Positions 9,323-37,865 of a DNA stretch of 64,000 nt are shown here, piece after piece. This DNA is from an uncultured delta proteobacterium (GTDB lineage: Bacteria; Desulfobacterota; Binatia; Binatales; Binataceae): assembly GCA_963734845.1 (NCBI GenBank), contig CAVTIS010000008.1, positions 236,419 through 300,418 of the forward strand, given 5' to 3'. Below the pieces are notes generated by a model. It did no database searches and was not told where the DNA came from. It saw nothing but the letters and a program-made list of their open reading frames with translations. Position numbers and translations under genes: made by a program. Positions within the stretch are counted from its first letter, which is position 1. Each line of letters opens with the position of its first letter.

Positions 9323-9824
9323 TTGGCGCGCATCGGGGCACTGTATGCCATCGAACAAGAGATCCGCGGGCGCCCACCCGACCAGCGGCAGCAAGTGCGC
9401 AACGCACGGGCCCAACCGTTGCTCGCAGCTTTGCGGCAGTGGTTCGCAGAAAGCTTGACCAAGCTGGCGCGAAAATCCGCTACCACCGCGGCGATTCGCT
9501 ACGCGCTCGCGCGCTGGGAAGCCTTGGTACGCTATGGCCGATGATGGCCGCCTCGAGATCGACAACAACGCCGCCGAGCGCGCCTTACGCCCAGTGGCGC
9601 TGGGTCGGAAGAACTATTTGTTTGCGGGATCGGACGCCGGCGGCAAGCGCGCGGCGGCCATCTACAGTCTGATCGGCTCAGCGAAACTTAACGGCCTTGA
9701 TCCTGAAGCGTACCTGCGCGAAGTCCTGACGCGCATCGCCGACCACCCCATCACGCACATCGAGGAGTTGCTGCCTTGGCAGATCGTCGCAAGCCTACCG
9801 CCCGCAATCGAAAGGGCAGCGTAA
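9323..9824 (+). pseudogene. IS66-family transposase TnpC, C-terminal ~170 aa only, with an internal frameshift at ~9536
   Basis: 'LYAIEQEIRGRPPDQRQQVRNARAQPLLAALRQW...AIRYALARWEALVRY' then, in the other frame, 'DDGRLEIDNNAAERALRPVALGRKNYLFAGSDAGGKRAAAIYSLIGSAKLNGLDPEAYLREVLTRIADHPI' is the canonical TnpC C-terminus. The N-terminal ~350 aa and tnpA/tnpB are absent. Confidence 0.85.
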
Positions 9825-10351
9825 ACCAGAAGCCCACCGGGAAGAACGCCGCCGTCACTTCCTTGGCCCTGCCCAATATCGCTAAGCTAATCGCAGACGG
9901 CGAAATCACCGTTGGCGTGCTTCGTCCCATTGGTTGTGTCGCCACCGCCACCGACAGGCATAATTGCCTGGCCATGCTGGTCCGCCGCCGGGGCGAAACC
10001 TTGACCCAGTTGCTGACGCGGCTCGATCTGGCTATAGCCAAAGCGTTCACCGAAGACATCTTCACTGACGAAGTCAACCCGCCATCGACGACCTCCTGAA
10101 GCAAGGCCGTTCCGCTTCCCTCCCGAATCGATGTTCACCTTCTTCGGAATACCACTTCGTATCTATAGACCTTGTCAACACGGCCTACTCCGGACGCTTA
10201 CGGCTAAAATGGGTTCCTTCCAAGTGCAAGGAGCTTTGATTGGTGGTTGCGTATGCCGCCGGGCTCGACGCTGATTGGCGCTCATCCAGACAAATGGTAT
10301 CTCTCTCGGTCGGATACGCTGTCTGTCATTGGAGTACGTGAGGGGTCGATC

Positions 10352-12424
10352 ATGAGCGGTCCTAATCTTTACTTGGCCCGGCGCGCGTTGCTGGCAGTTT
10401 GCGTGTTCGCGATAGTGGGCCTCGCCTCGGTCCAGGCGGCCGATCTTGCCACCGCCGACCTGATGCGCCGGGCGCAGGCGGGAGACGCTGCCGCCCAGAC
10501 GAAGATTGGTGACTTCTATGAATACGGACAGGGCGGGCTGCCCAAGGATGAGAAGCAGGCCCTGTTTTGGTACCAGAAGGGGGCGGACCAGGGCGATGCG
10601 GGGGCGCAGAACTGGGTCGCCTTCTTTTATGAGAACGGCCGCGCTGGCCTCCCCAAGAGCGACGCACAAGCCGTCGTGTGGTATCGCAAAGCCGCGAATC
10701 AGGGCAATGCCTTTGCGATGGCCACCCTCGGCCTGTACTTCGAAGGTGGCTGGGGCGGTTTACCGAAGAGCGATGTGCAAGCGGCGGCGCTGTATCGCAA
10801 GGCGGCCGAGTTGGGCGACGCGGGCGCGCAGAAGTGCCTGGCGAATTTTTATCTCACCGGCAGCGGCGGCTTGCCCAAGGACGATGCACAGGCGCTGGCC
10901 TGGTTTCGCAAGGCCGCCGATCAGGGCAACGCCATAGCGCAAAACTGGGTCGGTGTCTTCTACGCCAATGGCCGCGGCGGACTGCGCAAGGACGAAGTGC
11001 AGGCCGCGGCTTGGTACCGCAAGGCCGCCGACCAGGGCAACGCCTATGCCCAATGCAACCTGGGCGTCCTTTACGAGGAAGGCCTCGGTGGCCTTCCTAA
11101 GGACGCCAAGCAGGCAGCGGCCCTTTACCGGCAGGCCGCCGACCAGGGCAATGCCGCTGCCCAAGAGAACCTTGGTCGTCTGTGCGTGTGGGGCGAGGGC
11201 GGCCTGCCCCGCGATGATGTCCAGGCGCTGTCATGGTTTCGCAAGGCGGCCGACCAGGGCAGTAACGTCTCACAGAATTGGGTTGGTATTTTCTATGTGG
11301 CGGGTCGCGGCGGCTTACCCAAAAATGACCAACAGGCGCTCGCCTGGTATCTCAAGGCTGCGGATCAGGGCAACATAGCCGCGCAAACCAATGTTGCCGC
11401 GTTTTACGAACAAGGCCGTGGTGGCTTGGCGAAGAACGATGTCCAGGCGCTGGCTTGGTATCGCAAGGCGGCAGCGGCCGGCGATGCCGGAGCGATCGAG
11501 GTTGTTGGAAGCTATTATCAAAATGGCCGCGGCGGCCTGCCCAAGGACGATCGCCAGGCGGCGACGTGGTACCGTAAGGCTGCCGATCTGGGCAATGCCG
11601 GCGCGGAAACAGACGTGGGCTTTTTCTACGCCAACGGTCGCGGTGGCCTGCCCAAGGACGATCGCCAGGCGGCGACGTGGTACCGCAAGGCCGCCGACCA
11701 AGGCGATGCCTGGGGCTCAAATGATTTGGCCGATTTCTACGAGGATGGACGAGGCGGCCTGCCGAAGGATGAAAAGCAGGCGGCGGCGCTGTACCGCCAG
11801 GCGGCGGACAAGGGCAATGCCTTGGCCTTAAACAGTTTGGGCATATTCTACGAGTATGGACGCGGCGGACTACCCAAGGATGAACGCCAGGCGGCGGTCT
11901 TGTATCGTCAGGCGGCGGACATGGGCAATGCCTATGCCCAAGCCGAGCTTGCCTTTTTCTACTTGAACGGTCGCGGTGGCCTGGCCAAAGACGAACGCCA
12001 GGCGGCGGTACTCTTTCGCAAGGCTGCCGACCAAGGCAGCGCCTACGCGCAGTCCAACCTCGGTTCTCTTTACTCGGTTGGCGGGGGAGGACTGCCCCGA
12101 GACGCTGTGCAAGCCGCGGCGTTGTTTCGCAAGGCTGCCGACCAGGGCAATGCGCCCGCCCAAAACAATCTTGGCGATTTTTATGCGAAAGGGCTCGGCG
12201 GCCTGCCCCGGGACGATGCAGAGGCGTTGGCCCTGTTTCGCAAAGCAGCCAGCCAGGGCAACGCGGCGGCGGAAAACTGGGTCGGTGTCTTCTACCATGA
12301 CGGTCGCGGCGGCCTCGCGGTAAACTACCCGGAGGCCATGGTCTGGTATCGCAAGGCGGCAGCGCAGGGCGACAGCAATGCCATCCGCAACATTTACCTG
12401 ATGGAGCATTCGGGGAGACGGTGA
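10352..12424 (+). CDS. secreted Sel1-like repeat (SLR/TPR-like) protein, ~690 aa with about 18 Sel1 repeats
   Basis: Repeated ~36-aa units 'A(Q)xxLGxFYxxGRGGLPKDxxQAxxWYRKAADQGNAxAQ'. ATG at 10352 has 'GAGGGG' 8 nt upstream and starts a signal peptide 'MSGPNLYLARRALLAVCVFAIVGLASVQAAD'. The called ORF start at 10247 is probably too far upstream. Confidence 0.9.
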   Translation: MSGPNLYLARRALLAVCVFAIVGLASVQAADLATADLMRRAQAGDAAAQTKIGDFYEYGQGGLPKDEKQALFWYQKGADQGDAGAQNWVAFFYENGRAGLPKSDAQAVVWYRKAANQGNAFAMATLGLYFEGGWGGLPKSDVQAAALYRKAAELGDAGAQKCLANFYLTGSGGLPKDDAQALAWFRKAADQGNAIAQNWVGVFYANGRGGLRKDEVQAAAWYRKAADQGNAYAQCNLGVLYEEGLGGLPKDAKQAAALYRQAADQGNAAAQENLGRLCVWGEGGLPRDDVQALSWFRKAADQGSNVSQNWVGIFYVAGRGGLPKNDQQALAWYLKAADQGNIAAQTNVAAFYEQGRGGLAKNDVQALAWYRKAAAAGDAGAIEVVGSYYQNGRGGLPKDDRQAATWYRKAADLGNAGAETDVGFFYANGRGGLPKDDRQAATWYRKAADQGDAWGSNDLADFYEDGRGGLPKDEKQAAALYRQAADKGNALALNSLGIFYEYGRGGLPKDERQAAVLYRQAADMGNAYAQAELAFFYLNGRGGLAKDERQAAVLFRKAADQGSAYAQSNLGSLYSVGGGGLPRDAVQAAALFRKAADQGNAPAQNNLGDFYAKGLGGLPRDDAEALALFRKAASQGNAAAENWVGVFYHDGRGGLAVNYPEAMVWYRKAAAQGDSNAIRNIYLMEHSGRR
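10480..12400 (+). repeat. array of ~108-bp imperfect tandem repeats encoding the Sel1 units
   Basis: Recurrent DNA blocks such as 'ggcggcctgcccaaggacga...caggcggcg...tggtaccgcaaggc(g/t)gccgaccagggcaatgcc'. Two adjacent units are near-identical around 11520-11700 ('GRGGLPKDDRQAATWYRKAAD' twice). Confidence 0.8.
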
Positions 12425-12666
12425 GCAGTGGCAATCGCGGCAACGCTCAGGCACCCGGCGGCGACATGCAGTTCTGCGACCGGGGCATCTCGAACGGGAT
12501 GAGTGGCTGCACGAATTGCGAAACTGGATCCACCCGGATCCCGCAACCGGCAAGCCCAATCACTGAGACGGCGCTGTGGTTAGCATATCTCCCAAGCCGG
12601 GTAGGTTGATCGATCTTTCTGGAGTTTGTGTTGAGGCTCATCTTGCGGCCAGGGACAGCGGGCATC

Positions 12667-12927
12667 ATGAGAGCTTCAGCGTTTGTTGCGGTTCTGATTT
12701 TCACGGTTGCGGGGTGTGCCGCGCAGCCGGTACCCTCCAGCATCGAGTCGGCCACAATGTCGGCGGACCGCACCATTACGCTCCGGCTGCGGGCACAAGA
12801 CGGCCGCGGTGCAACCGGCGATGGTGTTCTGGTTTATAGAACCGGCAGCCGGGATTTGGAAGAGGTCCTCGGCCACATCGGCGGGCTGAAGCCGGGCGAG
12901 CCAAAGCCCGTTCCGCCGTGGTCCTAG
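12667..12927 (+). CDS. small lipoprotein (86 aa)
   Basis: 'MRASAFVAVLIFTVAGCAAQ' is a signal peptide with lipobox L-x-x-C ('TVAGC'); lies directly downstream of the Sel1 gene. Confidence 0.5.
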   Translation: MRASAFVAVLIFTVAGCAAQPVPSSIESATMSADRTITLRLRAQDGRGATGDGVLVYRTGSRDLEEVLGHIGGLKPGEPKPVPPWS

Positions 12928-13061
12928 TCGGTGTTTGCAACGACGGGGGGAAAGCCGCTTTTGGTCGGAAGAGTAACTTCTCAGCGACAGCGATTCCGGG
13001 TGAAACCACTTGAATCGATCAGACTTGCTCGTCTTGATTGAGATGCAATGCTGGAGGGACC

Positions 13062-13703
13062 ATGGGACGTTGCATTGGACTGAGTTTCCGGCTGCTGCTG
13101 GTCATTGCATGCGTGGCCCAGGTACGGCTGACACCCGCAGTGGCGCAGGACGTCTTCAACGGCGGGAACCAAGGAGGCGGCAATCCCAATTGCCCGCCCC
13201 CGGTCATTAACGGGATCACGCCGAAAAATTGGTCGTGCCGGACCGGTCCCCAGTATTCCGAGGGAAATCCCGATTGCCCGCCCCCGGTCATACTCATCAA
13301 CGGTCAGCCGACGACGCCTAAGAACTGGTCATGCCCGGGCGGAATGTCCTCGGGTCGGAGCGGCCCCATCGGGCCACTTGAAACCCACCATCCCGGCCCG
13401 CCCTACGTTCCAGGCGCTGCCAATCCATGCCAGCCGGGAGGTCCCGGCAGTTATAACTGGCTTAACAATCCGGTGGGTACGCAATTGCCGCCGGGCTGCG
13501 TGCGCCCCCCCACCGGCACGACGACCACCGATGCGAAGAACGATCCGAGTTACCAAACCGCGCCGCCCGGCAGCTACATCGTGCCGCCTGTGGGGCCGCC
13601 CGGCAGCTACATCGTGCCGCCTGTGGGGCCACCCGGCAGCTACGTCGTGCCGTCTGCGGGACCGCCCGGCAGCTATGTCAATTCCACCGCTGGCCGGCGT
13701 TAG
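13062..13703 (+). CDS. secreted Pro/Gly-rich repeat protein
   Basis: ATG at 13062 preceded by 'GGAGGG'; signal peptide 'MGRCIGLSFRLLLVIACVAQVRLTPAVAQD'. Two 'NPNCPPPVINGITPKNWSC' / 'NPDCPPPVILINGQPTTPKNWSC' modules, then four 'PPGSY(I/V)VPPVG' units. Confidence 0.6.
   Translation: MGRCIGLSFRLLLVIACVAQVRLTPAVAQDVFNGGNQGGGNPNCPPPVINGITPKNWSCRTGPQYSEGNPDCPPPVILINGQPTTPKNWSCPGGMSSGRSGPIGPLETHHPGPPYVPGAANPCQPGGPGSYNWLNNPVGTQLPPGCVRPPTGTTTTDAKNDPSYQTAPPGSYIVPPVGPPGSYIVPPVGPPGSYVVPSAGPPGSYVNSTAGRR
13563..13694 (+). repeat. 33-bp direct tandem repeat x4 encoding PPGSY(I/V)VP(P/S)(V/A)G
   Basis: 'ccgcccggcagctacatcgtgccgcctgtgggg' repeated with few substitutions. Confidence 0.8.
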
Positions 13704-14229
13704 CCCGCCCAATCGAAGGCGCCATTGCTGAAGAACTAGCGTCGGCCCGACGTCGGATGCCGCCACCAGCGGCGCCACCACGGCCGCATCAACGCTATGC
13801 TCTCGGATGACTGGCGATAGGAAGCATCGCAATCGTTGATGTATTGCGCTGACCAGACTCCGCTGCCCAGTAGCGGTTCGCCATCCGCACTGTAAGAATT
13901 GTCCCAGCGACAGGACATGAGAATGAACCGACCGGCGGCCCAGGCCACAACCCCCAGTTCCGTAATCTCCAGTCCTTCGACCGGACCTTCAAAGGTATGG
14001 ACAGCCTCCTGCAGTGCCGCCTCCAGCATCTCCGCGCGCTGATATTTCGGCGCTTTCATGGTCCTGTTTACAACGCTCTAAAAGTGATCCATTCCGCGTT
14101 TTAAGAGCGATGCGTCCCGGCTGATAGTAGTTAGACAGTATCCACCGCCTTGAGGCGGCGTATATGTCCACAGCCACCGGGCGATCGACGACGCTTCCGG
14201 CTACCCGCATGTTCTATCGAAAATTCTAT

Positions 14230-14859
14230 CTATCGGCGGACACGGCTCGCCGTTTCCGGTTGTCCTGTCCCGGACGGCTCAGTCTGGCCCGATGCAGCAT
14301 TCGACGAATAGCGGCGCCACGCGGCAGTCCCAAGTTGTCCGGTCCAGGAACAAATATCGGAAGTCTGAAGCGAGTAAGTGCCCCCGTCTGTGTATCCATT
14401 GGTCGCTTTCAGCGACCAATGTCCGTTGCGGGCAGAAAACGCGCCCGCGGTGGGTGGAGCCCCGTCCCCGGCTTCACTATGAAAACTGTAGGTCCCGTCG
14501 CGATGGATTTCCCACACCCAAGGTCCACCATTCAGCGGGAGCTTCCAAGTGCCAACGAGGTTGGGGTCGACCCCGACGGGCTTCGACGGTTGTGACGTAC
14601 AGGGTCGCATTGCGTTCTGTGCCAGGAAGCATGGGTCGATATGGGGAACCGGACGACCACCACCGCCACCGCCACCACCGCCACCGGGACAAAAGGAGGC
14701 ATTCCCGTCCGTGCTGTCGTAGCAATTGGTTATTGGATTGTAGACTTGTGCCGATGCTGTAGGTTCCAGGGCTATAACGCCGAGTACAACCGCTACAGCG
14801 ACGCAGATGCACGTCATTCCTCGATGTACGACCCTGTCGATCACCCCGAACGTGTTCAT
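14230..14859 (-). CDS. secreted hypothetical protein with a Gly10 tract
   Basis: ATG at 14859 with 'AAGAGG' 8 nt upstream; signal peptide '...MTCICVAVAVVLGVIALEPTASAQ'; mature part rich in G/T/S/W with a G10 run. Confidence 0.5.
   Translation of the reverse strand: MNTFGVIDRVVHRGMTCICVAVAVVLGVIALEPTASAQVYNPITNCYDSTDGNASFCPGGGGGGGGGGRPVPHIDPCFLAQNAMRPCTSQPSKPVGVDPNLVGTWKLPLNGGPWVWEIHRDGTYSFHSEAGDGAPPTAGAFSARNGHWSLKATNGYTDGGTYSLQTSDICSWTGQLGTAAWRRYSSNAASGQTEPSGTGQPETASRVRR
14656..14685 (-). repeat. (GGT/GGC)10 simple-sequence tract encoding Gly10 within the secreted protein
   Basis: Plus-strand 'accaccaccgccaccgccaccaccgccacc'; trinucleotide repeats are prone to slippage. Confidence 0.7.
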
Positions 14860-15055
14860 CTTGCCGACCTCTTTTCGGAGCGCGTTTTGCTCGCTTAACC
14901 CGACATTCCCCAAATGGCCAATCTACCCAGCATCCGGACGAAAATAATAGCGCCTCCTGAGGCGGCGGAAAAGCGCACAAACGCCGTATTTCGTCCCTGG
15001 CCCACCTCGGGCCAGTCCTAATCTGCGTTTTGGAGTGAACTCCGAACTCACGCAA

Positions 15056-16093
15056 TTATGCCACGCCGTTCCTTCGCAGAGACGATGGAACGATCCGGTC
15101 GGCGATCGCGGACAAAATGGCTAAGAGCATAAGGTAAGCCTTATCAGCGGCCGTCGGAGACAGCATCAAAGATGGCGCCCCGTAAAGCCTAGTGCGAATA
15201 CCTGCTGGCGTAAAGCCGCTGCACCAGGCGAGCCCGTCCGACCATACTCGATCATTCCCAACTCTCGATCGTCGAATTGCAGCCGCCAGTGCCGCCCGAA
15301 ACCGCTGTTCGCCGAAGTAGGTTCCGACCGCTGCACATTCCGATATGCGAAGATAATCGCGCCCCGGCATGCCAACACGTCGCATCATACGCCGAAGAGC
15401 AGCCTGTTGCTGGGCGAAGGAGAATTTGTAAAGGCCGAGAAAACGCAGTTTTTCCTGCGGAATCGCCGTCTCGAGCCGGAACGCTACCGACCAATCGCGG
15501 CCCGCTTCGATGATGGTGAAATGGTCCATGAGGAAGTCCATTACTACCGGAAGATAGAAGGCGGTTGGGTGATAAAAATCCTGGTGAATTACGATCGATT
15601 TCTCCGGAATGAGATGCGGAAAAAATTCGGTCAGCACTTTGCCGCTCAGTGCAAGTGTTTTAGCGACGTCGACAAACAGTATCTCGATAGGCGTCTCTGA
15701 GGGCCAGCTTTCTTCGAGCAAGTCACCCGTATGAACTTCTATGAGATCGGCAAACTCCGCTGTGACGTGCCGAAAAATCGCGGCGAAAGACTGCCCCATC
15801 TCGACAGCCTCATCGAACTGCGTCCGGATGAAGTCCACCAAGTATGGCTCATTAGCAATGAAGCGATCATAGGAATGCAGGCGGTTCCCCGCGGCTCTTG
15901 GATTGTCCCTGAGACCCGCAGCGAGGCAACAGGTAGATGCTCCGCAAAAAGCACCGAGTTCAACCACCGCGCCCTCACCGGTGTATACATAGCGCGCCAG
16001 TTGATAAAGCAACTTACGCTCTTCCAGGCCGAGCAGGCCTAAGGCGTAACTCCCGGCTTGCGCATCGGGGGCGAGCCACGGCTTAGCGCTCAT
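15056..16093 (-). CDS. class I SAM-dependent methyltransferase (TylF/MycF / Methyltransf_24-like)
   Basis: 'VVELGAFCGASTCCLA' (motif I, G-x-G-like) and 'ILFVDVAKT' (acidic motif) resemble macrocin-O-methyltransferase-like enzymes. Confidence 0.55.
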   Translation of the reverse strand: MSAKPWLAPDAQAGSYALGLLGLEERKLLYQLARYVYTGEGAVVELGAFCGASTCCLAAGLRDNPRAAGNRLHSYDRFIANEPYLVDFIRTQFDEAVEMGQSFAAIFRHVTAEFADLIEVHTGDLLEESWPSETPIEILFVDVAKTLALSGKVLTEFFPHLIPEKSIVIHQDFYHPTAFYLPVVMDFLMDHFTIIEAGRDWSVAFRLETAIPQEKLRFLGLYKFSFAQQQAALRRMMRRVGMPGRDYLRISECAAVGTYFGEQRFRAALAAAIRRSRVGNDRVWSDGLAWCSGFTPAGIRTRLYGAPSLMLSPTAADKAYLMLLAILSAIADRIVPSSLRRNGVA

Positions 16094-16158
16094 CGTGCTG
16101 GACTTCTCTAGTTTCCATCGACAAACTCGATCGTCCTCCTCAAGGTCGGTGAATGGTG

Positions 16159-17034
16159 TTACGCCAAGGTTGGAACGAGCGCGGAGAACTCGGAGTCCTT
16201 CAATCGCCGGACGAGAGCGTCATAGTTCGAGAGCAATTGGGAGTACGGAATATTAATCGCTTTTTGCGGCCGTCCGTCATAGCGGAACTGAAAAGGGGCG
16301 TCGAGCGCCGTCGCGATGTTCCGTAAAGCTCCCGGGCGTTCGGGAATTTCCTGCCGGGAGCCAGCTCTCGCGAGGTCCTCGAGCAGGTTTTCATAGGGGC
16401 AATGGACCACTCGGCAGTCCCGCGTGGCTTTAAGGAAAACGTCGCGATGCCGAACGATTGTCCGCGCATACGCCAAGCATTCTGGAACATCGATCTGATA
16501 ACTCCGACCGATTACGGCACCATCATAGTTGTGCCAGAGGTTTCGCTGTGAGGCGATCAATGCCGAGATCGCGCAGTGAATTACATTTCTCGTGGTATGA
16601 ACCAGTGTAGCTCCACGAGATTGCAAATAAAATAAGAGAAATGGGAAAGAACTAGAATCCCAAGCGACTGGCGCAATGCGCGTCAGTTGATTGTATTTGA
16701 TATCAACGCCAAAGGCGTAGCAGTTGCTCTTCTTATTGCCTTCCCAATGATAGCGAATGCGATACCGTACAAATTCAAAATATTCGTCGAGGAATGACTC
16801 GGCGTCGCCGAAACTCCCCTGAAAAAAGCTGCGAGCCGGAAGGCTGCGGCAGTAGTTGTCCCAGTGGGCGGGCGCTGGGCTCGGTGTCAGCACTTCACCA
16901 AGCATTGCTATCCGTTCGTTAGTATTAAGGATTTCGCGCAATAGATTAGTGCCGGTTCGCTGAGCGCCGATTACCGCAAAAAGATGATTGCCACTGGCTC
17001 GTGAAGAAATATTATGGCCAGCCAAGACCCTCAT
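16159..17034 (-). CDS. sulfotransferase (PAPS-dependent)
   Basis: 'FAVIGAQRTGTNLLREIL' matches the 5'-phosphosulfate-binding loop (G-x-x-R/K-S/T-G-T-x-x-L); GC near 50%. Confidence 0.7.
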   Translation of the reverse strand: MRVLAGHNISSRASGNHLFAVIGAQRTGTNLLREILNTNERIAMLGEVLTPSPAPAHWDNYCRSLPARSFFQGSFGDAESFLDEYFEFVRYRIRYHWEGNKKSNCYAFGVDIKYNQLTRIAPVAWDSSSFPFLLFYLQSRGATLVHTTRNVIHCAISALIASQRNLWHNYDGAVIGRSYQIDVPECLAYARTIVRHRDVFLKATRDCRVVHCPYENLLEDLARAGSRQEIPERPGALRNIATALDAPFQFRYDGRPQKAINIPYSQLLSNYDALVRRLKDSEFSALVPTLA

Positions 17035-17134
17035 CGTTAAGCCACTGTCAGAATCTTACGGGCGCTCTGGTCAAGGCCTTGAGTCGTGAGTACCCCAGTT
17101 GATCGGTCGCGGCTACGGACACATCGAAACCCGG

Positions 17135-17995
17135 TCAAGTGGAACTGGAGTCGACGATCAGTCTCTCAACGGCCCGGCGGCTGCTTTCCCAAGCCGACCA
17201 GAATCGAGGTGAACCAGTTTCGATTCGGTCGGTAGCCAGGCAGCGGAGCCATAAGTACGCTTCCCGAGTGAGCGGACGGAGATTCGGACTCGTGTCAAAG
17301 TCGAATTCGTTGAAGAAGCTGTGACGCAAGTTCGGATTGAGAAACCTGCTGGCGAACTGCTCAATGCCAGCTTCTTCGGTATCACTTAGAGGGATTTTCA
17401 GACCGCGCACGATACGTTCAAGCTGCCGCCGCGGGTCCTCCATCACCAAATCATAGTCGGCAACGATGAATGGCCTGTTGGCGATCTTGCTTAGGTTTGG
17501 GACCATGTAACTTAACCACAGCAAGTGCGCTATTCCTGGATTCATGCCTTGGCGTTGTAATAGCGAAACAGCCACGCTCAACGGATTTCTGATTACCACC
17601 AAGTAGCATTCTTCCACTTCAAGACGATGGAGCACTGAGTGCCAGAAAGGCAATAGCCGAATAGTGCGCGGATCCTTGAAGCCCCAAAGCGGATGACTTG
17701 CGAAGGTGGATCTAAGGTATTTGACGGCGTCGGCGAGCAGAGCCCCGACTTCAGGTTCGCGCCATCGGGAATCGTCAATCAGTGTAACATCTTCCCACTT
17801 AAGTCCGAAGACGGTGAGGAGACGTTCGTTCAGCTCGCAAATGTTCTTATCTTCCCAATAACCAGTCGGGTTATCGGGCTGTGGGCTTAGAAAATTATTC
17901 CCCAGGTAGACGCCCAACATTTGCAGACCGCGGGCGAGGGCGCTGGTGCCGCTCCGATGCATTCCAAGTACCAGTACGGCGCGTGAGGATCGCAT
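17135..17995 (-). CDS. sulfotransferase (PAPS-dependent), paralogous type
   Basis: 'VLVLGMHRSGTSALARGL' 5'-PSB loop; also '...RNPL...' further along; GC near 50%. Confidence 0.7.
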   Translation of the reverse strand: MRSSRAVLVLGMHRSGTSALARGLQMLGVYLGNNFLSPQPDNPTGYWEDKNICELNERLLTVFGLKWEDVTLIDDSRWREPEVGALLADAVKYLRSTFASHPLWGFKDPRTIRLLPFWHSVLHRLEVEECYLVVIRNPLSVAVSLLQRQGMNPGIAHLLWLSYMVPNLSKIANRPFIVADYDLVMEDPRRQLERIVRGLKIPLSDTEEAGIEQFASRFLNPNLRHSFFNEFDFDTSPNLRPLTREAYLWLRCLATDRIETGSPRFWSAWESSRRAVERLIVDSSST

Positions 17996-18056: not shown

Positions 18057-20231
18057 TCAGCCGGTCACGGCTGGGCCCTGTTCTCCGCGCGAGAGCGGCG
18101 TGCCAATGTTAGCATCTCGCTCGAACTTCAATCCTTGGCCGAATTGCAGCACCTTTCGCAGCGTCTCCTCGATGGCAGGTGCCAGCTTGCGCCCGGGTAC
18201 TGTGTACGGCCGAGCGCTGCGAACCGCGTTTACCAGCGAGTGCACCATACTCTCCTGGTCTTGATCTTCGCGGTGCCAAATGAATACTTCCGGCATCGTT
18301 TCGATCCGCAGGCCCATTAGAGCCGCTTTGGAAAGAAGCTCCCAGTCGTCAAGGGTTGATACCGCTTCGTTGCTGAATCCCCCGATTGTCTCGAATGCAT
18401 CGCGTCGTACTAGGGCGTTGGTGCTGCCGAAGCAGTTGACGAAAGCCCCGGTAGCAGCATCCCCTCCGAGAAACGGACGGCGTGAGTGCTCGAGGAGGTT
18501 CTGCGACGATCCGTTGGAGGAGCCGAGGAAAAAGCTGATTGCCGAAGTCAAAATGTCGGCATCCACGCGTTGCGCAACCTGAACGAAGACCGAGATCGCA
18601 TTGGGAGCCAACAAAAGTGTGTGATCGTCGACGAAGAACAAGTATTCCCCTTTCGCCTCGCGAACCGCCGCATTTCTGCTTGCCCCAATCTCCTCACCGC
18701 GTCGAAAGATCCGGCGCATTTCGTGGCCATCGGAACCATTGGAATCAATCGACGAATTCGATGGCGAAAATTCCTCGCTTCCACACTCGGCCAAGATGAT
18801 CTCCAGATGCGGATAGTTCTGCTGCTTTAGCGAGGCCAATGTCGCCGCGGCGCCCTTCTCTCTGACATTGTAGGCGAAACATATGCTCACCACCGGGAAA
18901 ATTGATTCTCTGCCGCCCCGCCGAGGCTGACGAACAGGTTGTTTGTGCTTGGCTTGATTCGGGAGGCTGACATGCAGATCCACCCATTTGCGTGCGTTGT
19001 CGGCGAATGAGGCCGATGGGCGCGCCGAAAAGGCACCTTGGTCGAGTGCGGCCCGGAGACGTTCAGCCAGAACGTCGGGCCTCGGCTCGAAGCAGACGTT
19101 TTCTATGTCGGAGGAGTCCATAATTTCTGGAATCCCTCCAACATTGCTAGCCAGCAATGGTACACCCGCGCCCACGCATTCCAGCACCGTGTTGGGATAA
19201 TTATCGGCGAGTGACGAGATCACCGCTAACCGTCCAGCTCCTTTAAGGTACTCGATTGCTGCTTTCTGATACTTATTGGAAACAATGTGCCACGGAACGG
19301 ACCAAGCCTTGGATCGGTCGCTGATGTAGCCGATACTCGAACGACCGTAAAGCTGAGTTTCTTTGCCTAGAAAGGTGACTTCAAACTTGCGATTGGCGCG
19401 GTCGGAGCAAAGTTGATCGACCGCATCGCAAAAGAGTTTGAGCCCTTTTCTGATCTCCAATCGTCCGAAGAATACTAATTCACGAATCTCATTTTTCCGG
19501 GGACCCGGCGCGGGACCTTCTGAGAGCAGCCCTTGGGGAAGAACATATGGCGCAACGTAAGTCCGTTCAGGAAGTTCCCAGCCATTTCCTTGCATCCAGC
19601 GAAGAAGATATTGGCTCGGACTCGTGACGATATCCGCGGCTGAGATGCTCACGCGTTCCATAAAATCAATCTCAAGCTCTCCGAGATTGCGTATGTAATC
19701 CTGGCTGCCCTCTTTCACCCAAAATGTCGGACCGTGGGCACTAATCACGAAGGTCGTGTCACCGAAAGCAAGTCCTTGGCGCTTTGCGAGCAAGCTGTAA
19801 AACCCCAGGCCCTGACATTCCGGAAAGTGAATGATATCGAAATCGTGCTGATGTTCCTTCAGCCAAGCATACGTGTGATAGGACACGCTGGAGGCCCAGG
19901 CAGCATGAATTCTGGGCTCATGAGCCATGGGCAGCGGAATCAACTTCAGGCCTTTCTCTTTCTGGTAATAGTCGACCCAATCAATCATGTTTCCGTCGGT
20001 AGGATGACACCCGAGAAGGAAAAGGATAGTCACGTCGTAGCCGGCCCGCTTCAGGGCGTCGGCGAGACTCGTGTAGGCGGTACCGATACCAGCATTGCGA
20101 GACGGCCCCTCGATTTCCCACGAAGCGATGCAGACGCGTGGAAGGCTGGAACCGTGGGGGACGTCAACCTCGGGCAATGGCGGAAACGTAGCGGACATCG
20201 ATCTTCCTCTCCTTGGTGGATCCGGCGACAA
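18057..20231 (-). CDS. bifunctional glycosyltransferase: N-terminal GT4 (GT-B) domain fused to C-terminal GT2 (GT-A) domain, 724 aa
   Basis: N-half '...RVCIASWEIEGPSRNAGIGTAYTSLADAL...NTVLECVGAGVPLLASNVGGIPEIM' is GT4. C-half 'PVVSICFAYNVREKGAAATLASLKQQNYPHLEIILAECGS...GASRNAAVREAKGEYLFFVDDHTL' is GT2 with a DxD motif. Confidence 0.8.
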   Translation of the reverse strand: MSPDPPRRGRSMSATFPPLPEVDVPHGSSLPRVCIASWEIEGPSRNAGIGTAYTSLADALKRAGYDVTILFLLGCHPTDGNMIDWVDYYQKEKGLKLIPLPMAHEPRIHAAWASSVSYHTYAWLKEHQHDFDIIHFPECQGLGFYSLLAKRQGLAFGDTTFVISAHGPTFWVKEGSQDYIRNLGELEIDFMERVSISAADIVTSPSQYLLRWMQGNGWELPERTYVAPYVLPQGLLSEGPAPGPRKNEIRELVFFGRLEIRKGLKLFCDAVDQLCSDRANRKFEVTFLGKETQLYGRSSIGYISDRSKAWSVPWHIVSNKYQKAAIEYLKGAGRLAVISSLADNYPNTVLECVGAGVPLLASNVGGIPEIMDSSDIENVCFEPRPDVLAERLRAALDQGAFSARPSASFADNARKWVDLHVSLPNQAKHKQPVRQPRRGGRESIFPVVSICFAYNVREKGAAATLASLKQQNYPHLEIILAECGSEEFSPSNSSIDSNGSDGHEMRRIFRRGEEIGASRNAAVREAKGEYLFFVDDHTLLLAPNAISVFVQVAQRVDADILTSAISFFLGSSNGSSQNLLEHSRRPFLGGDAATGAFVNCFGSTNALVRRDAFETIGGFSNEAVSTLDDWELLSKAALMGLRIETMPEVFIWHREDQDQESMVHSLVNAVRSARPYTVPGRKLAPAIEETLRKVLQFGQGLKFERDANIGTPLSRGEQGPAVTG

Positions 20232-26006: not shown

Positions 26007-26295
26007 TCGCGCGAACCCGCGCCAAGGATCGTGAAGTGAGTCAAGATTCAACCGGCGTACTGAGTCTCGGCGCTTAGCGCTACTGCGGCGAGCCGCCGCA
26101 GCTGAGAACGTCACTGAACAGAAGGGCGGTCGCCGCTTGTCGGGCGGATTGTCAGAACCGCGGGCTTGACAGCGTCGCATCAAACCTCTCCGAACAACGC
26201 GTCAAAAGATCGCTCGCATCATCTGGGCGGCGGTTGCTGAATCGCAACTGCCTCTGCCGTTACAATCCTGCTTTTTTTGTCCACGGAAATCTCTC

Positions 26296-26470: not shown

Positions 26471-26487
26471 TTCTTCGATTCCTATCT

Positions 26488-27650
26488 CTATCTCGCTGCT
26501 TGCCTGATCTGCCGAAAGCATGCGCGCACCTCATGCACGAACATTTCCGGCTGTTCGAATGCGGCGAAGTGGCCGCCCTTGTCGAGCTCGTTGAAGTAGA
26601 CCAATTTCGTATAGCGCTGCTCCACCCAGCGCCGCGACCCGCGGAAGATCTCCTTGGGGAAGATCGAACATCCCGCAGGTATCAGGACCGCGTCGGTCGG
26701 AATCGAGCGGAAACTCTCCCAGTAGAGTCGCGCGGATGAGGCGGCGGTTCCAGTCAGCCAATACATCATCACATTGTCGAGCAGTTCGTCGCGGGTCAGG
26801 ACGTTCTCCGGATGGCCTCCACAGTCGGTCCATGCCCAAAACTTCTCGAGGATCCAGGCCATCTGGCCGACGGGCGAGTCGCTAAGGCCGTAGCCAACGG
26901 TCTGCGGCCGCGTACTCTGTTCCTTGGAGTACCCGGAGTCCCAGTCGTTGTAATACCGGAAACCAGCGAACGCCGATTTTTCCGTCACGGTGAGGTCGCT
27001 GCTCGAAGGATCGATTCGCACCAGCAAGTGCAGTACGAGCGGCAGATTCACATGTATTCCGAGGCAGTTGGCGGGGTCCTGAAATCCGATGCAAGTCGTG
27101 ATCGCGGCGCCCCAATCACCGCCTTGTGCGGCATATTGCTTGTAACCGAGCCGCAGCATCAGTTCGGACCACGCGTTCGCGATCCGTTGCACGTTCCATC
27201 CCGTGCGGGTCGGCTTGTCCGAGAAGCCATATCCTGGAAGCGACGGACACACGAGGTGGAACGCGTCGGCAGCCTCGCCGCCGTGCGCGGTCGGGTTGGT
27301 CAACGGTTCGATTACTTTCTGAAACTCGACGATCGACCCGGCCATCCATGCGTGACAAGCAGCGGCGTCGCGTCCGGGTGCGGCGAGCGGACATGGATAA
27401 AGTGGATTCCCAGACCGTCGATTTCTGTCTTGAACTGCGGAAAGCGATTGAGCAACGCCTCGCGCGCACGCCAGTCGTACTTCTCCAACCAATATGAAGC
27501 GACCTCCTGCGCATACGCGAGGGGCAATCCCTGCGTCCAATCGTCGACGCATTCACGCTCCGGCCATCGCGTCGCACGTAGGCGCCGCTTCAGGTCCTCA
27601 AGTTCGTCATCGGTAATAGCAATCCGGAAGGGTGTGATCTCATCGCTCAT
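26488..27650 (-). pseudogene. epoxide hydrolase (EHN N-terminal domain plus alpha/beta-hydrolase core), interrupted by a single frameshift at ~27337-27339
   Basis: ORF 27312..27650 'FRIAITDDELEDLKRRLRATRWPE...GIHFIHVRSPHPDATPLLVTHGWPG' (EHN domain) continues in the +1 frame as 'SIVEFQKVIEPLTNPTAHGG...PSLPGYGFSDKP...QGGDWGA' (ORF 26488..27552). Restoring one C in the plus-strand 'gaCCCgg' run rejoins 'HGWPG|SIVEF'. Confidence 0.8.
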
Positions 27651-28571: not shown

Positions 28572-29526
28572 TTACCGCGCAGAATCATCCGTGGATTGAA
28601 TGAGCCGATAGGCAGCGCGGCAGACCTCCGATTCGCGAGTTAATAGGTTCACGTCACAAAAGGCCGCTACTTCTGGATACGGGACGCGGGCATCTACAGG
28701 TCTTCCACCCTTTAGGATTGCGCTGGCCTCGCACTTCGGCGACGCGGGAGCGTAGACGCCCCGCGCGCAAAGTGGCGCAACCTCAGACCACGATTCCGCT
28801 TGGCCATTCGGCCCTCTACCTGCGTACCCCCCGTAGCGGCGCAATTCCTGAAGAACATCAACCTCTGGAATGCCATAAGTAACCGGATTTAGTAGTCGCT
28901 TGACGACCGTGGAACTCGCGGAGCGGTCACCCCCGCCGTGCGTGACCAGGCAAAGGGCAAGACTCTGCTCCAAGTAATTGGCGTCGCAAAACTTCGCCAC
29001 ATCGTCAAGAGGAATCGGTTTTGTGTCGCCCCAACCATCCACGGCTAGCTGTGCCGCATGGCAGCGCGCGGACGTTGGTTGGTAGTTCCCCAACCGGCAG
29101 CCTTGTTCGACTTGCGGCCATTCTTCCGTTTTTTCTGTGATCTCGCCCTCCATATGTCCCTGTGCCAACGCCTGCCCGACATAGCTTCCGATAATTACGC
29201 TCGTGCGATCTGCCGCGGCTGCCGACGCCGCGGACGAAACGCTCGGCGAACTCTCCCCGGCAGGAGTGTGCAGCTCTGAACTCCCTTCAGGCGCTCGCCT
29301 TACGACGTCGGGAGTTTCCCGCATTCCTTCCCGCGATACGCATCCAGGCATCGAGAGTGTGAATGCTCCAAACCCCGATGAGCACCCCCGCTGCAAGGCT
29401 CGCTATGGCTACGACACACATTGCCCTAAATGCTCGTTGGGCCTTACGCCAGCTCAGCACGAGATAGAGCAAAACCGCTGACACGATCACCGCGGCAGAG
29501 ATAATGAGGAAATGCCAGTAACTCAT
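28572..29526 (-). CDS. membrane-anchored Cys-rich protein; two overlapping ORFs (29287..29526 with 2 TM; 28572..29396 with the Cys-rich domain) that probably form one gene with a frameshift
   Basis: N-terminal ORF 'WHFLIISAAVIVSAVLLYLVLSW...VVAIASLAAGVLIGVWSI' has two TM helices. The downstream ORF has repeated 'VA(K/A)FCD(A/V)N(Y/L)L...C' modules and no signal peptide of its own. Confidence 0.35.
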
Positions 29527-29961
29527 TCGCTGCGCTCTGGCCTGGAATCGCGGGACTGGCGGCAGGCCGCCTCAATCGGATGCAGCTCAATCGTCATCAA
29601 TGCGCCGGTCTTCGGTCTGGTCGGCGCTTTGCGCTCTTTGGAAACTTTCTTCCAGCGGGCGCGTGCCGCCTTGCGCGCGGATCGCGCACGCTGCTCGGGC
29701 GTCATCCTTCCTCCCTCGCCGCCCAGCCGCCCGCAGCACGAAGCGGGAGCGGCACCAGTAAATACCAGACGACTAAAGCGAGCGGGGCAGCGTGGCGTGG
29801 CTTCATAAGCAACGTCTATCGAGGTAACCGCGCGGATCAAAGTCGCAGTGGAATAGACCCAGCACGCTAATTTTCGCGCGTTCGTACCACGTCTTTAGGA
29901 CATCGGCCACTACATTGCAGCGGCTATTCGTTTAGTTCGTCCAGTAGCGCCTTCGCGTCCT

Positions 29962-32900
29962 TCAAATGGCGGTGTCGAAGCCTTCAGTGAACCAGCCATA
30001 GATTTCGGCGAGCATTGTTCGCGCTTCGTCGCGCCGGCCCTGTTTCACGAGCAGCCGCGCGAGGCTCGTAATCGCGCGCAGTTCCCATGCTTTCGCCCCA
30101 GTGCTACGGGCGCGCGTGACGGCCTCGCGAAAGCCCGCTTCGGCCAGTTTTGTCTGCCCTTGTTTGAGCCGGAGTTCTCCGCGTAGCCTCAGAGCATCGG
30201 AGCGGTGGGCGAGTGCGTCGGGATTCACCTGGAGAGCCCGTTCGACCGTTTCAAGCGCTTCGACGATGGCGCCTTTGCGCCCTAACGCCTCGGCTAGGGA
30301 TGCGGTATAAGCGGGGATGGTTAGACGCAACCCGCCTTCGAGCAAACTAGCTGTCCCCTGACGAAGCAGCTCAATACCCTCGGTCGGGCGGCCCAGTTGC
30401 GTTCGCGCCCGACCGAGAGCACATCGGGAAAATGCTGCCTCGGGTGCAATTGATTTTTCTCCGATAGCTCGAGCGCTCGCGCCGCCAGAGCCTCGGCTTG
30501 CTTGTCTTCACTCAGTAAATCGTAAATGTAGCGGCGGCTATCCCTGATATCGCTAGGTCGTGCGGGTTGTTCTCGTTCACGGCTGCCATCATCCGGGCCA
30601 TTCACTTCGCCAAGCAACGTCGGCTCGGCCAAGCATCCATCGTTGTAGCTTGCTACACTGAAGGTCCATAACGCAGCTCCGGGGTCCTGTTTGAAGCCGG
30701 GATCGTCGAAAAACTTGAGCCCAGCCATGTAGTGAGCGTCGGCGGCGAGCGGAATCGCCATGGTGGTGGCGCGTTAAGGTTTGGACCGCATGCGCCATCC
30801 CGATAACGCGGGAACTGCCTTCGCGAAGAGCAAGCTCGAGCGCTTGGTCGGCGAGCATAGATGCGGCCGGTAAATCCCCCGAGTTGAAGGGGCCGAGCCA
30901 TCTCCGCGTCGCCCAACTGACGAATTGCGTGAGGTTACCGCTCCTCTCAGCGAGCGCCACAGCCTCATCGATAGCGTCGGTAGTTTCGCACGCGGCATAC
31001 CCTGTGGTGACGTAGAGCATCTGCAGCCCCTTCTTGCCTAAGCTCCAGTTCGCGAAGGTCACGCCCGGACGATTCGGGTAACAGGTTCATCAGCGCCACA
31101 GCCTGCTGGTAACTCCTCAGCGCTTTGCTGAACGCGTTGCGCGTCCGTGCGGTCTCGCCCGCCCTTGACCATTCGGTGATCGCTGATTCGGTTTCGCCGG
31201 CTTCTGTCCAGTGACGAGCAAGGACTTCGGGCTGCGCTTCTGCTATAGCGGAAAATTTCTCCGTCGATCATCTGCGCGACGCGACGACGCAAACCCGCTC
31301 GCCGGCTCTTTAGCAACGCTTCGTAGGCCGTGTCCCGGACCAGTGGTGCTTAAAGGTGTAGTTCGCTTCGGGCGGAATCCCGCGAACTTAAATTAGTTTC
31401 GGCATCGGCGAGCTTGCGCAGAGCTCCTTCCAAATCCTCTTCGTCGATTGGATGTACCGCGTGCAGCAATTCGTAGGAAAATTCGCTGCCAATTACGGCG
31501 CCGACCTGCGCCACCTCCTTGGCAGTCCCAGTCGATTTAGCTGCGCCATCAACGAGTCATTTAAGGTCACCGGAATTTCGTGCCCTGTAAGTTTCGCATT
31601 GCTAATTTCGAGCATGACTCAGTCAGCTCTTCCAGAAAAGAGGAACCCCGCCGGTCCGCTCGACTATCGTCGCGATGGTCTTTTACAATGCCTTTTGCGC
31701 TGCTACTTCTCCCAATTATCGTGCGGACGTTGCGCAGGTTAGCCGGTTGAGTGATTTGGGTATGATGCGCCCGCGGCGGCCACTGAGCGAGAAAACCGGG
31801 GCACGTGGTGTACAGCAACAGCAGCTGTGCGGTCGCCTGCTCGATGAGAAGTTGGATCAGCTCCCGCTCAAGGGTCAGCCCAGTGCAGTCTTCGATCGCG
31901 ATTATTGTCGGCTGCATTCGGGCCGCGCCAAGCAGCCCACTCGACCAGCGTCGCGAGCAGGCGGCGGCGCTGCTGTTCGGGTGGAGCGGTAGCGGCGGAG
32001 ACTTCGCCGGTAGCGGCAGATTCAAGAGCGGCGCAATCAGCGGTAGCGCTTCGGCAGGCTCCAGTCTGCAAGTAACAGACGGGATTCCAGTTGCCCGAGC
32101 TGCTCCTCCGCCGAGTCGTCGCTCGCCACGCCAGAAATTCGCGAAGCATTTCAGTAACTGCGTAGAAGGGTGTGTTTTGAAAAAGGCCCCGGCCGCCGCC
32201 TCTACCCAGGTGTGTGGAGTACCCGCGATCTGTTCATGGAAGCGCTGCACCAGGCGCGATTTGCCGATCCCGGCCTCGCCGATGATCAGCGTCACCTGGC
32301 CTTCGCCTTCGAGCGCACGCTCCCATCGACTCATGAGCAGGCGCAGTTCGTGTTCGCGCCCGACAAACGGAGTCAGTCCACGCGTTGCCGCGGCCGCTTC
32401 GAACCGCCCGCGTACTCCGCTGGGCTGGACTACCCGGTAAAGCTGAACTGGCCGTTCCGATGCCCTTGAGCGCCTGTGCTCCGCGATCTTCAACCACGAA
32501 CAGCCCGGAGATCAGCCGATGCACGGCGTCGGTGATAACCACCGTGCCTGGCTCTGCAGCCGACTGGACCCGAGCGGCGATATTGGCGTGTACCAAGACA
32601 TCGGTGTCTTTGCCCGCGCCGGTGCCAACCACCACCGTGCCTAATCGATCCCAACCCGCGCGGCGAGTCTTGGGTGCGTTGGATGCTCGTTGAGCTTCGA
32701 GATCGCGTCGAGGATTGCGAGGCCCGCGCGCGCTGCCCGCTCAGCATCGTTGTCGTGCGCTTCGGGCCAGCCGAAGTAGGCCATCACGCCGTCGCCGAGG
32801 TACTGCGCTACGTGCCCGCCGAAGCGCTCGATGGCCTGCGCCGCCGCGTGATGGTACTCGCCGACGATTTCGCGCCACTGCTCGGGATCCAGATGGCTGG

Positions 32901-33267
32901 CTATCTGGGTTGACCCGACCAGATCGCAGAAAAGTACCGTCAGATGGCGGCGCTCGCCCTGTGGCGCTTCATGTGGCTCACCGTGTTCGATGCTGATGGG
33001 CGTGGCTGACAGAGGAGCGGCCGTGGGTTGGGAGAGATCGGCGCCGCAGTCGCCGCAAAATTTCTGGCCGACAGGATTCTCAACACCGCACCTCGCACAG
33101 CGGTTGCCAAGCGGCGCACCGCAGTCACCGCAGAACCGTTTGCTGTTTGGATTTTCAGAGCCGCAGCTGGTGCAACGCATCGGCTTACCTGGGAAAAACA
33201 AGCGACTGGTCCTTCTTGTATCACCCGGCGCCGGGAAAGGGCAGCGGGCGCGGAAAGACGATCGCAT
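29962..33267 (-). pseudogene. zinc-ribbon / class III adenylate-guanylate cyclase / AAA ATPase / TPR signal-transduction regulator (~1100 aa), broken into at least 5 ORFs by frameshifts
   Basis: N-terminus has three CxxC...CxxC zinc ribbons. 'RRHLTVLFCDLVGST...GDGVMAYFG' and 'GTVVVGTGAGKDTDVL...NIAARVQ' are cyclase-domain signatures. 'FVGREHELRLL...GEAGIGKSRL' is the AAA Walker A. The TPR region ends '...[16 protein letters not shown]'. ORFs 32641..33267, 32234..32635, 31567..32493, 30589..31062 and 29962..30345 sit in different frames; the junction at 32641 is restored by one extra A. Confidence 0.75.
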
Positions 33268-35701: not shown

Positions 35702-35778
35702 CTCGCGAGCGCTGGCGCAGACGCCGCGAGGGCTTCTTCAAGCTCGGGCCGTAGCAGTGCTTAGAAAGGACTAGCCGA

Positions 35779-36816: not shown

Positions 36817-37359
36817 TTAAGTTACCTTGAGTTTCGCACCGGTCGCGGGGGAAGCCGTCTGCGCCATCTTGGTACCCGCGTCGTAATATCGCTGAGCCCA
36901 GATCCCCGAGTACGGTTCGTTCTCGGTTGGCATTCGCCAGGTCGTCACTTTCACCTTCGCGCGGTCGACGCCAATCAATGCCCGCGGCTGGTCTTTCGTT
37001 TCGGTCAGGTAGTAGTCGGCCGACGCCTCGTCGACGTAGCGGCATGCGATCCGCCGGTAGACGTCGTCCCACTTGCGATCGTCGCCCGGTTCAAAAAGAA
37101 TCTCGGCCTTTCCCTCGAAGAGCACCTTTCGGTAACGTCCCGCTTCCTCGTCAATCGTGATCGCAATGCGCGGCTCCCGCCGGAGGTTCTGAAGAAATGC
37201 CGAATGCTTTCGCGGAGTGATCAGGACCTTGCCGCCCTCGAAAATGAACCAGACCGGAACGACGCTCGGGGATCCATCGGCGCGGACGGTCGCGATGCGG
37301 GCCAGATGGCTCCGCTCAGCCAAAAAATCCTTCATTTCCTGATCGGTAAGCTTCGGCAT
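36817..37359 (-). CDS. pyridoxamine 5'-phosphate oxidase-like (PPOX class, probably F420/FMN-binding split-barrel) protein
   Basis: 'LAERSHLARIATVRADGSPSVVPVWFIFEGGKVLI' is the typical PPOX split-barrel N-terminal pattern. Confidence 0.6.
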   Translation of the reverse strand: MPKLTDQEMKDFLAERSHLARIATVRADGSPSVVPVWFIFEGGKVLITPRKHSAFLQNLRREPRIAITIDEEAGRYRKVLFEGKAEILFEPGDDRKWDDVYRRIACRYVDEASADYYLTETKDQPRALIGVDRAKVKVTTWRMPTENEPYSGIWAQRYYDAGTKMAQTASPATGAKLKVT

Positions 37360-37465
37360 CGTCTGCCCCTCCTGACAACCTGTGCGGCGCGGCTTCCGGC
37401 TTCGCAGGCGAGATCGCCCAGTTGCGGTGACCAGGCCAAGATTGCTGACTGCGGCTTGCCAGCGC

Positions 37466-37865
37466 CTATTTGCCGAACGCGCTCGTCACCAGTTCGGTGT
37501 CGAGGTATTCGGTCACTTCCTGCACCTTCCCGTTAGCGATACGAAATACGTGGCAATAGGTATTGTTATATGAGCGGCCGTTCTTCGACCGAGCCTTGCC
37601 GTGGGCTTGCATCGCTACGTAATCGCCGTCGGCGATCAGGTTGTCCGGTGTCACCGCGATACCGCCTTCGAGCTGCGCGGTCAGCGGGCCCAGCAGCTTG
37701 CCAATCAGTTCCTGCTTGCCGTTGAAGGTACCCGGAGTACTTAGTGGTGCCGATAATGGTATAGCGAACATCGTCAGCGATGCTGCCGAGAAACACTTTC
37801 GTGTTGCCTTTCGACAGCTCGATGAACATGTTGCTGATGAATCGCTTATTCTCGGCTGCTCCCAA
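37466..37865 (-). pseudogene. NTF2-like / SnoaL-like protein, interrupted by a single frameshift at ~37731-37735
   Basis: ORF 37566..37865 'ENKRFISNMFIELSKGNTKVFLGSIADDVRYTIIGTTKYSG' continues in the +1 frame as 'TFNGKQELIGKLLGPL...VAMQAHGKARSKNGRSYNNTYCHVFRIANGKVQEVTEYLD' (ORF 37466..37900). Removing one nt from 'ccgggtacc' restores 'KYSGTFNGK'. Confidence 0.6.

Follow-up and report, generated by a model that had tools for sequence, protein, structure and literature searches.

The 64,000-nucleotide window analyzed here (contig CAVTIS010000008.1 of assembly GCA_963734845.1, positions 236,419 to 300,418) comes from an uncultured Candidatus Binataceae soil bacterium. Positions 1 to 40167 belong to a mobile genomic island, and a fragment of the tRNA-Sec gene (selC) at 40169 marks its boundary with the chromosome. 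The island cargo consists of insertion sequence (IS) remnants, polysaccharide genes, amidases, an epoxide hydrolase, a cyclase and an NTF2-like gene, and all genes of the span from 9323 to 37865 belong to it. Four of these genes have broken reading frames, which an initial annotation had ascribed to single-nucleotide indels at homopolymer runs and regarded as probable sequencing artifacts. In our analysis, the broken genes are probably for the most part genuine pseudogenes of different ages, carried as cargo of a ~44.7-kb element inserted in selC.

The most heavily damaged gene lies on the minus strand at 29924 to 33180 and is a decayed class III adenylate cyclase/AAA_16 ATPase/TPR gene, whose intact product would have ~1,090 amino acids (aa); intact homologs are class III cyclase/AAA_16/TPR proteins of ~1,085 to 1,130 aa. 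It was compared with its counterpart on ENA ERZ25039548 contig_54060 (44,659 bp; L001, L008 and L014 in our locus set), which comes from another sample. Against this relative, the window gene shows 35 indel events and 118 substitutions. The indel events lie between 29968 and 32643, with the window shorter in 25 of them and carrying insertions in 10. The initial annotation was right that the frame is broken at ~32643 and that further breaks follow, but its count of three or more falls short of the 35 events, and the base missing at 32643 is not an A from a run that should read AAA: the relative reads cctGaatc, and the lost base is a G at a non-run position. Substitutions may have added nonsense codons at 30602 to 30604 and 31683 to 31685, which lie beside indels where the alignment is uncertain.

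One frameshift in this gene is older than the rest. An extra base at 31397 to 31399 (minus strand; AA to AAA on the coding strand, GCCGAAACTA) is common to the window and contig_54060, where it divides the gene (L001 5647 to 8923) into parts of 647 and 440 aa. Around it the two alleles are 5 to 9% apart, and outgroup proteins read through the site (LADAELIYV.GI.PEA). The shared insertion could mark a tolerated split gene or could be a coincidence. On contig_54060 both halves stay open and conserved, with the second open reading frame (ORF) beginning 10 nt after the first stop, and a homolog (P0220) is frameshifted ~8 codons upstream of the shared insertion, into the same frame.

The substitutions carry a clear evolutionary imprint. 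Mismatches in the 647-aa part number 29, 17 and 53 at codon positions 1, 2 and 3, respectively (chi-square p=4e-5), and over the whole cyclase-TPR gene there are 67 GC-to-AT versus 29 AT-to-GC changes in the direction from relative to window. Polarization with eight homologs showed that, among 34 nonsynonymous differences, the window has the outgroup state at 12 (for example, R484 and L525-T526) and a derived state at 19, several of which affect invariant residues; of the 12 nonsynonymous changes in the TPR part, 11 are derived in the window. Errors cannot yield outgroup matches or an excess at third codon positions, and because of this codon-position bias and these matches we rejected random low-coverage consensus error as the origin of the cyclase differences. 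The window-unique changes and the preponderance of deletion events fit relaxed selection. The gene thus displays the multiple lesions with deletional and GC-to-AT bias that distinguish a pseudogene, together with a phylogenetic signal in the shared insertion, the outgroup-matching states and the third-position excess, to which the shared NTF2 lesion described below adds. Judged from these comparisons, we regard the cyclase as a real, old pseudogene. Because its flanks are only ~0.07% divergent, the 2.2-kb divergent cyclase tract must be of different ancestry, and recombination between alleles would account for it. A related island occupies the same selC site in another strain (L020 14394 to 21311) and contains two cyclase/AAA_16/TPR genes, each broken into three to five ORFs; one copy shares 83% identity with the pseudogene in the window, in an alignment of 1.95 kb that contains 50 gap openings.

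The second line of evidence comes from the SnoaL_2/NTF2-like gene at 37466 to 37865 (minus strand), where the plus strand reads CCC at 37730 to 37732 and CC is expected. The extra base had been placed at ~37731, and its removal indeed restores a 132-aa protein whose SnoaL_2 match grows from profile positions 31 to 101 to positions 7 to 101. The repaired protein is near-identical to the common intact orthologs P0170 and P0171. The frameshifted sequence itself is 100% identical in contig_54060 and in the Logan contig L009 (run ERR11594406), and its 101-aa product is present in NCBI, ENA and Logan, in a cluster otherwise composed mostly of intact 132-aa proteins. The initial annotation had named equally broken relatives as the observation that would speak against an artifact. 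Contig_54060 and the Logan contig are such relatives for the NTF2-like gene, and the cyclase has their equivalent in spirit, in its shared insertion, third-position bias, 12 outgroup matches, and deletional and GC-to-AT bias.

The remaining two of the four breaks are not shared with relatives. The IS66 TnpC C-terminal remnant at 9323 to 9824 (plus strand) corresponds to residues ~362 to 523 of 523. In a tblastn search with the 521-aa TnpC of a Sinorhizobium (S. fredii) IS66, residues 435 to 516 aligned in a single frame at 9540 to 9785, and an upstream alignment, with the IS66-like part of residues ~362 to 433, fell at ~9323 to 9535 in a different frame. The predicted break at ~9536 was thereby confirmed as one base too many: at 9536 to 9539 (tatGGCCgat), four bases stand in place of one codon, the extra base lying in a two-base run. 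The same truncated remnant is in frame on another ENA contig (P0195, RYGDDGR), which makes the insertion private to the window. Intact TnpC has 521 to 523 aa (the 523-aa relatives P0186 and P0194 are examples), of which just the last ~160 of ~523 residues exist here; tblastn found no further TnpC in the window beyond residues ~362 to 523. Hence, this is a remnant and not a complete IS66 element with tnpA, tnpB, a tnpC of ~520 aa and terminal inverted repeats, and because its C-terminal third alone remains, the gene is dead whatever its frame.

The epoxide hydrolase gene (EHN plus alpha/beta hydrolase; 26488 to 27650, minus strand) reads CCC at 27337 to 27339. Four relatives (L001, L010, L011 and L012) have CCCC there and an intact 387-aa gene, in agreement with the repair that had been proposed at ~27337. 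Besides the missing C, there are 0 mismatches to L001 in 1,164 nt. The broken products (285 and 112 aa) occur on the source contig only, and the 90% cluster has 149 mostly full-length members. Since the lesion is private to this assembly, it may be an error or a very recent mutation. Two hypothetical genes have similar lesions. The conserved hypothetical gene g318 (318 aa in the relative; 28572 to 29526, minus strand) has lost 2 bp at 29316 in this assembly alone, within a linker of variable length, and g282 (282 aa in the relative; 214 to 1061, minus strand) has a private 1-base deletion at 711. In comparisons between assemblies, the epoxide hydrolase, IS66, g318 and g282 lesions were not reproduced.

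We then examined the pooled indels for a homopolymer signature. Runs of at least 2 nt contain 44% of the window's bases, and it is therefore unremarkable that three of the four named sites lie in runs. Of 79 single-base indels relative to other sequences (10 in near-identical island segments, 31 in the cyclase/TPR gene and 38 against chromosomal relatives), 31 (39%) were in runs. The effect of run length was assessed over 20.7 kb of ~99.9% identity between the window and contig_54060. Here, 10/11641 runs of length 1, 2/3161 of length 2, 2/630 of length 3, 1/162 of length 4 and 0/41 of length 5 or more differed, the single four-base run being the epoxide hydrolase site, and 10 of the 15 elementary differences stood at non-run positions. 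Homopolymer artifacts would concentrate in runs at a rate rising steeply with length; neither was observed, and the indel rate did not rise at long runs in these 20.7 kb. In a published evaluation (PMC9262707), runs below 11 nt were resolved by Nanopore R10.4 consensus, and with older chemistries the long runs were the first to fail; runs of 1 to 4 bases are therefore unexpected sites of error. Thus, all four breaks reported by the initial annotation are real features of the sequence, and three of them alter runs of 2 to 4 bases, but the cyclase site is not in a run, and the association with runs that had seemed typical of homopolymer errors is no stronger than chance.

A base-composition effect was seen in the chromosomal part of the window. 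At 40169 to 64000, compared with 19 relatives, 18 of the 38 single-base indels (47%) fell at the C or G of a CpG, versus 23% of bases (p=0.001), and 32 of the 38 are C or G. The corresponding CpG counts were 2/10 in the island flanks and 10/31 in the cyclase, meaning that the effect is absent from the former and weak in the latter. An error mode linked to a methylation motif or to CpG was not adopted, the effect being confined to the chromosomal multistrain set, with no common motif.

The placement of the private indels is also informative. In the chromosomal 40 to 64 kb, ~22 genes have lengths equal to those of their relatives, so frameshifts are not a general problem of this assembly. Window-private 1-nt indels in these 24 kb are intergenic at 40256, 40568, 40612 and 54710 and coding at 46331; one coding indel out of five contrasts with the 91.6% of this sequence that is coding (p=2.4e-4). 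For the island segments of near identity, the coding share is 3 of 9 indels versus 67% expected (p=0.04). This avoidance of coding sequence indicates real variants filtered by selection, as consensus errors made at random would strike genes as well. The same pattern could come from a protein-guided frameshift polisher, and there is no sign that one was used. The indels are also strongly clustered along the contig: the 3.3-kb cyclase gene has 35 events, the adjoining 6.9 kb none. Artifacts would be random with respect to both coding sequence and position, and the indels are random in neither respect.

The coding exception is a chromosomal GT4 glycosyltransferase gene (46241 to 47363, minus strand). 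Its +1 at 46331, ~31 codons before the stop, is missing from all 11 relatives that cover the site; it replaces the last ~31 residues and extends the ORF to 46125, over the start of the next gene. A GH15 glucoamylase-like gene nearby (window 43258 to 45070) is intact in the window, but two to three single-base insertions are found in it in each of L016, L017, L020 and L022, one of which (window-equivalent 44229) is common to three strains. This 1.8-kb gene accounts for 7 of 15 single-base indel events in a 13-kb stretch of 11 aligned assemblies, 3 of the 15 being private to the window. A shared event with additional private ones is a pattern of real decay and not of random error, and decay of the GH15 gene seems to have set in more than once in the species.

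The boundary of the island was defined by two sets of alignments. The right-hand ~40 kb of the island (1 to 40168, strandless) was delimited by its match to contig_54060 and by same-species loci, which align only from 40169 rightwards. Twenty such loci, from ENA contigs named contig_N, NCBI metagenome-assembled genomes (MAGs), JGI and forest-soil assemblies, match window 40169 to 64000 at 94 to 99.4% identity (17 of them at 98% or more), and in all 10 loci that reach the left edge of the chromosomal block the alignment ends at exactly 40169. The 5' 43 nt of tRNA-Sec lie at 40169 to 40211 (minus strand), where the gene is cut in the anticodon stem by the island/chromosome junction. Empty sites with an intact tRNA-SeC at this place are found in L017 (12966 to 13061), L018 (12968 to 13062), L021 (12969 to 13064) and L024 (7119 to 7214), while the window and a further five to six genomes (L016, L019, L020, L022, L023) have different DNA attached at exactly this base. 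The boundary thus lies inside a tRNA gene that is whole at empty sites, as in a tRNA-targeted island. ARAGORN detected no tRNA at the junction in the window or in the other genomes with occupied sites, and the intact tRNA is not rebuilt on the side seen. The island end bears only a weak resemblance to the tRNA T-arm (AAGGTTACGAC versus AAGGTTCGAC); no clear attachment (att) core was seen at the junction, and the left island end lies beyond the window.

Contig_54060 corresponds to window 1 to 40167 plus a 4.4-kb module, circularly permuted, such that window 40167 is linked to window 1 through the integrase/HTH_17/N6_N4-methylase/AlpA module. The Phage_int_M, HTH_17 and AlpA genes of this integrase/excisionase/methylase module therein lie outside the window. 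Both ends of the contig map to window ~10,265. Its remainder would be 15,096 bp if circular, and window 2752 to 17841 measures 15,089 bp; because these lengths agree, the ~44.7-kb island may occur in a circular or tandem form, by coordinate arithmetic rather than by read-through. The island copies in the window and in contig_54060 are mosaics of near-identical and divergent segments.

Other parts of the island add to this description. A 724-aa GT4+GT2 fusion ORF with a TTG start (window 18057 to 20231) is intact in the window; in contig_54060 (L014 19807 to 20004), four 1-base deletions within 200 bp, at window 18519 to 18719, hit this ORF, at the edge of a tract with dense mismatches left of window 18,720. 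Further IS debris comprises an rve integrase-core fragment at 3996 to 4619, an IS3-like transposase ORF (HTH_21 + rve + rve_3) at 5331 to 6170 and a 184-aa IS110 DEDD transposase fragment at 22220 to 22774. At 10247 to 12424 (plus strand), a 725-aa ORF is made up of little else than Sel1 repeats (17 repeats, 454 bits), and behind it come genes for methyltransferase, sulfotransferase (two genes), glycosyltransferase and ABC-2 transporter functions; the island therefore carries a surface-polysaccharide modification cluster. A megablast search of 9 to 33 kb against plasmids gave just two 76% matches to IS66, and we rejected the possibility that the region is a known plasmid. A scan of GTDB genomes with the island amidase found only relatives of at most 76% identity, in Binataceae MAGs; the source species representative in GTDB is without the island, and the scan produced no orthologous locus.

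How far sequencing errors could account for the broken genes depends in part on the source of the data. The names of the related ENA contigs follow the style of Flye, and the accessions of their assemblies cover ~150 consecutive numbers. The Microflora Danica project sequenced 154 samples by Nanopore only and assembled them with Flye + Medaka (PMC12313526), and the related contigs would fit this origin. Nanopore consensus indels fragment genes, especially below ~40x coverage (PMC9262707). If most breaks were homopolymer-type errors of long-read or pyrosequencing data, with the genes really intact, such an origin would favor them, as would the involvement of short runs at three of the four named sites and the private status of the epoxide hydrolase and IS66 lesions. 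This explanation is very unlikely, however. All compared runs of at least 5 nt are unchanged, runs in general show no excess of indels, and the sites involved are runs of 1 to 4 that R10.4 consensus resolves; moreover, the NTF2 lesion recurs in two other assemblies, the cyclase differences bear evolutionary signatures, private indels avoid coding sequence, and the ~22 adjoining chromosomal genes are intact. The artifact reading fails for the cyclase and NTF2-like genes, and for the IS66 remnant it makes no difference. We judge an error and a real mutation to be about equally probable for the epoxide hydrolase lesion and a few further lesions that are isolated and private. A local artifact specific to the island was also considered, in which mixed strain variants, integrated and circular, would give a chimeric, indel-rich consensus in variable tracts (the cyclase and the glycosyltransferase gene of contig_54060) with sporadic 1- to 2-base errors close by and a clean chromosome. 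Such an origin would explain why indels cluster where the two assemblies diverge, in both directions (the window's cyclase and contig_54060 at 18519 to 18719), why the indel:substitution ratio of the island is ~10 times that of the chromosome and why the broken alleles have no second sighting. Yet a chimera of real alleles cannot create 19 window-unique changes at conserved positions or a GC-to-AT bias, and the 12 outgroup-matching sites show that the window has a real allele of its own. The insertion at 31397 to 31399 had already broken the gene in both lineages, and the same island has 0 indels in 6.9 kb (33.3 to 40.2 kb) and 1 in 5.5 kb (18.7 to 24.3 kb). We consider a local artifact unlikely. 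It is also rather unlikely, and slightly more so, that the +1 retained across alleles 5 to 9% apart, with both halves open and conserved in one lineage, marks a functional split or translationally recoded signaling gene on an active ~44.7-kb selC element that is both integrated and circular and interrupts tRNA-Sec in the anticodon stem with no restoration of the tRNA.

Several observations weigh against genuine decay. In near-identical island segments, the indel:substitution ratio is ~0.5, compared with ~0.05 in the chromosome, and 7 of the 10 single-base indels leave the window shorter. The epoxide hydrolase, IS66 (+1), g318 (-2 at 29316) and g282 (-1 at 711) lesions are private to this assembly, and at 26104 the Logan contig L007, which shares the window's single-nucleotide polymorphisms, agrees with contig_54060 and not with the window. 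Among ~15 billion proteins, the broken cyclase, epoxide hydrolase and g318 products were found only on the source contig, and the decayed alleles are therefore without independent confirmation. The TPR part shows 1.4% substitutions versus ~0.07% in the flanks, with nearly all its nonsynonymous changes on the window's side; this divergence calls for an older coalescence or for consensus error at that place. Nanopore data may underlie every assembly in which the NTF2 lesion occurs, and a systematic basecalling error could then have produced it. Finally, related ENA contigs have suspicious breaks: the essential cysS gene is split in L026 (1 to 1083; ENA ERZ25039606 contig_6007) and intact in L027 (1 to 1089; NCBI MAG), and 20 of 46 cyclase homologs on ENA long contigs (43%) are truncated versus 8 of 62 from JGI (13%; p=7e-4). 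Frameshift errors are probably present in part of these ENA assemblies.

Overall, the view that real pseudogenization is less parsimonious than artifact was borne out only in part: the cyclase and NTF2 evidence favors real decay, and an artifact is plausible for a few isolated lesions. Under the preferred reading, the lesions would form layers of different age. The IS66 piece would be an old truncated remnant. The cyclase may have acquired its +1 before the two known alleles diverged and then decayed under relaxed selection in the window's lineage, with deletions exceeding insertions and GC-to-AT changes dominant. The NTF2 frameshift would be a fixed variant of this island lineage, and the young lesions (epoxide hydrolase, g318, g282 and the extra IS66 base) could be either the newest layer of decay or residual long-read consensus errors. 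This picture is an ordinary one, and it comes with a data-quality caveat. For annotation, a blanket "repair" of the region's frame breaks as homopolymer errors is not advisable. Pseudogene is an acceptable label for the cyclase, NTF2 and IS66 genes, and "frameshift, unverified" is the appropriate flag for the epoxide hydrolase, g318, g282 and the GT4 tail at 46331. The combination of run-length spectrum, coding or intergenic placement of private indels and outgroup polarization provides a read-free recipe for frameshifts in long-read MAGs.

The region can be compared with three known systems. It shares with the homopolymer artifacts of Nanopore, 454 and Ion Torrent data the single-base breaks in conserved genes, the likely long-read metagenome source and the probable errors in related contigs, such as the split cysS of L026. 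Unlike in such artifacts, there is no rise at long runs, most indels are at nonrepeat positions, one lesion is reproduced, coding sequence is avoided and the chromosomal genes are intact. Among genomic islands, the closest parallel is provided by those associated with selC (tRNA-Sec) in enterobacteria: LEE, PAI-I and SHI-2. Those islands and the present element are variable among strains and inserted at tRNA-Sec, with empty sites that retain an intact tRNA, and both have an integrase/excisionase module and cargo rich in IS remnants and pseudogenes. Here, by contrast, the junction lies in the anticodon stem, the tRNA is not rebuilt on the visible side and the host belongs to an unrelated phylum. 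Bacterial pseudogenes under relaxed selection decay with deletional and GC-to-AT bias, as in Rickettsia and Mycobacterium leprae. The present host is a free-living soil lineage and not a host-restricted one, decay is confined to the cargo of a mobile island, and the divergent tract, 5 to 7% distant from the relative but set in flanks ~99.9% identical to it, requires recombination. The likeness to that process lies in the many lesions of the cyclase, its 25 deletions versus 10 insertions, the excess of GC-to-AT changes, the changes at conserved residues and the superposition of younger private lesions on older shared ones, which is also seen in the GH15 gene of related strains.

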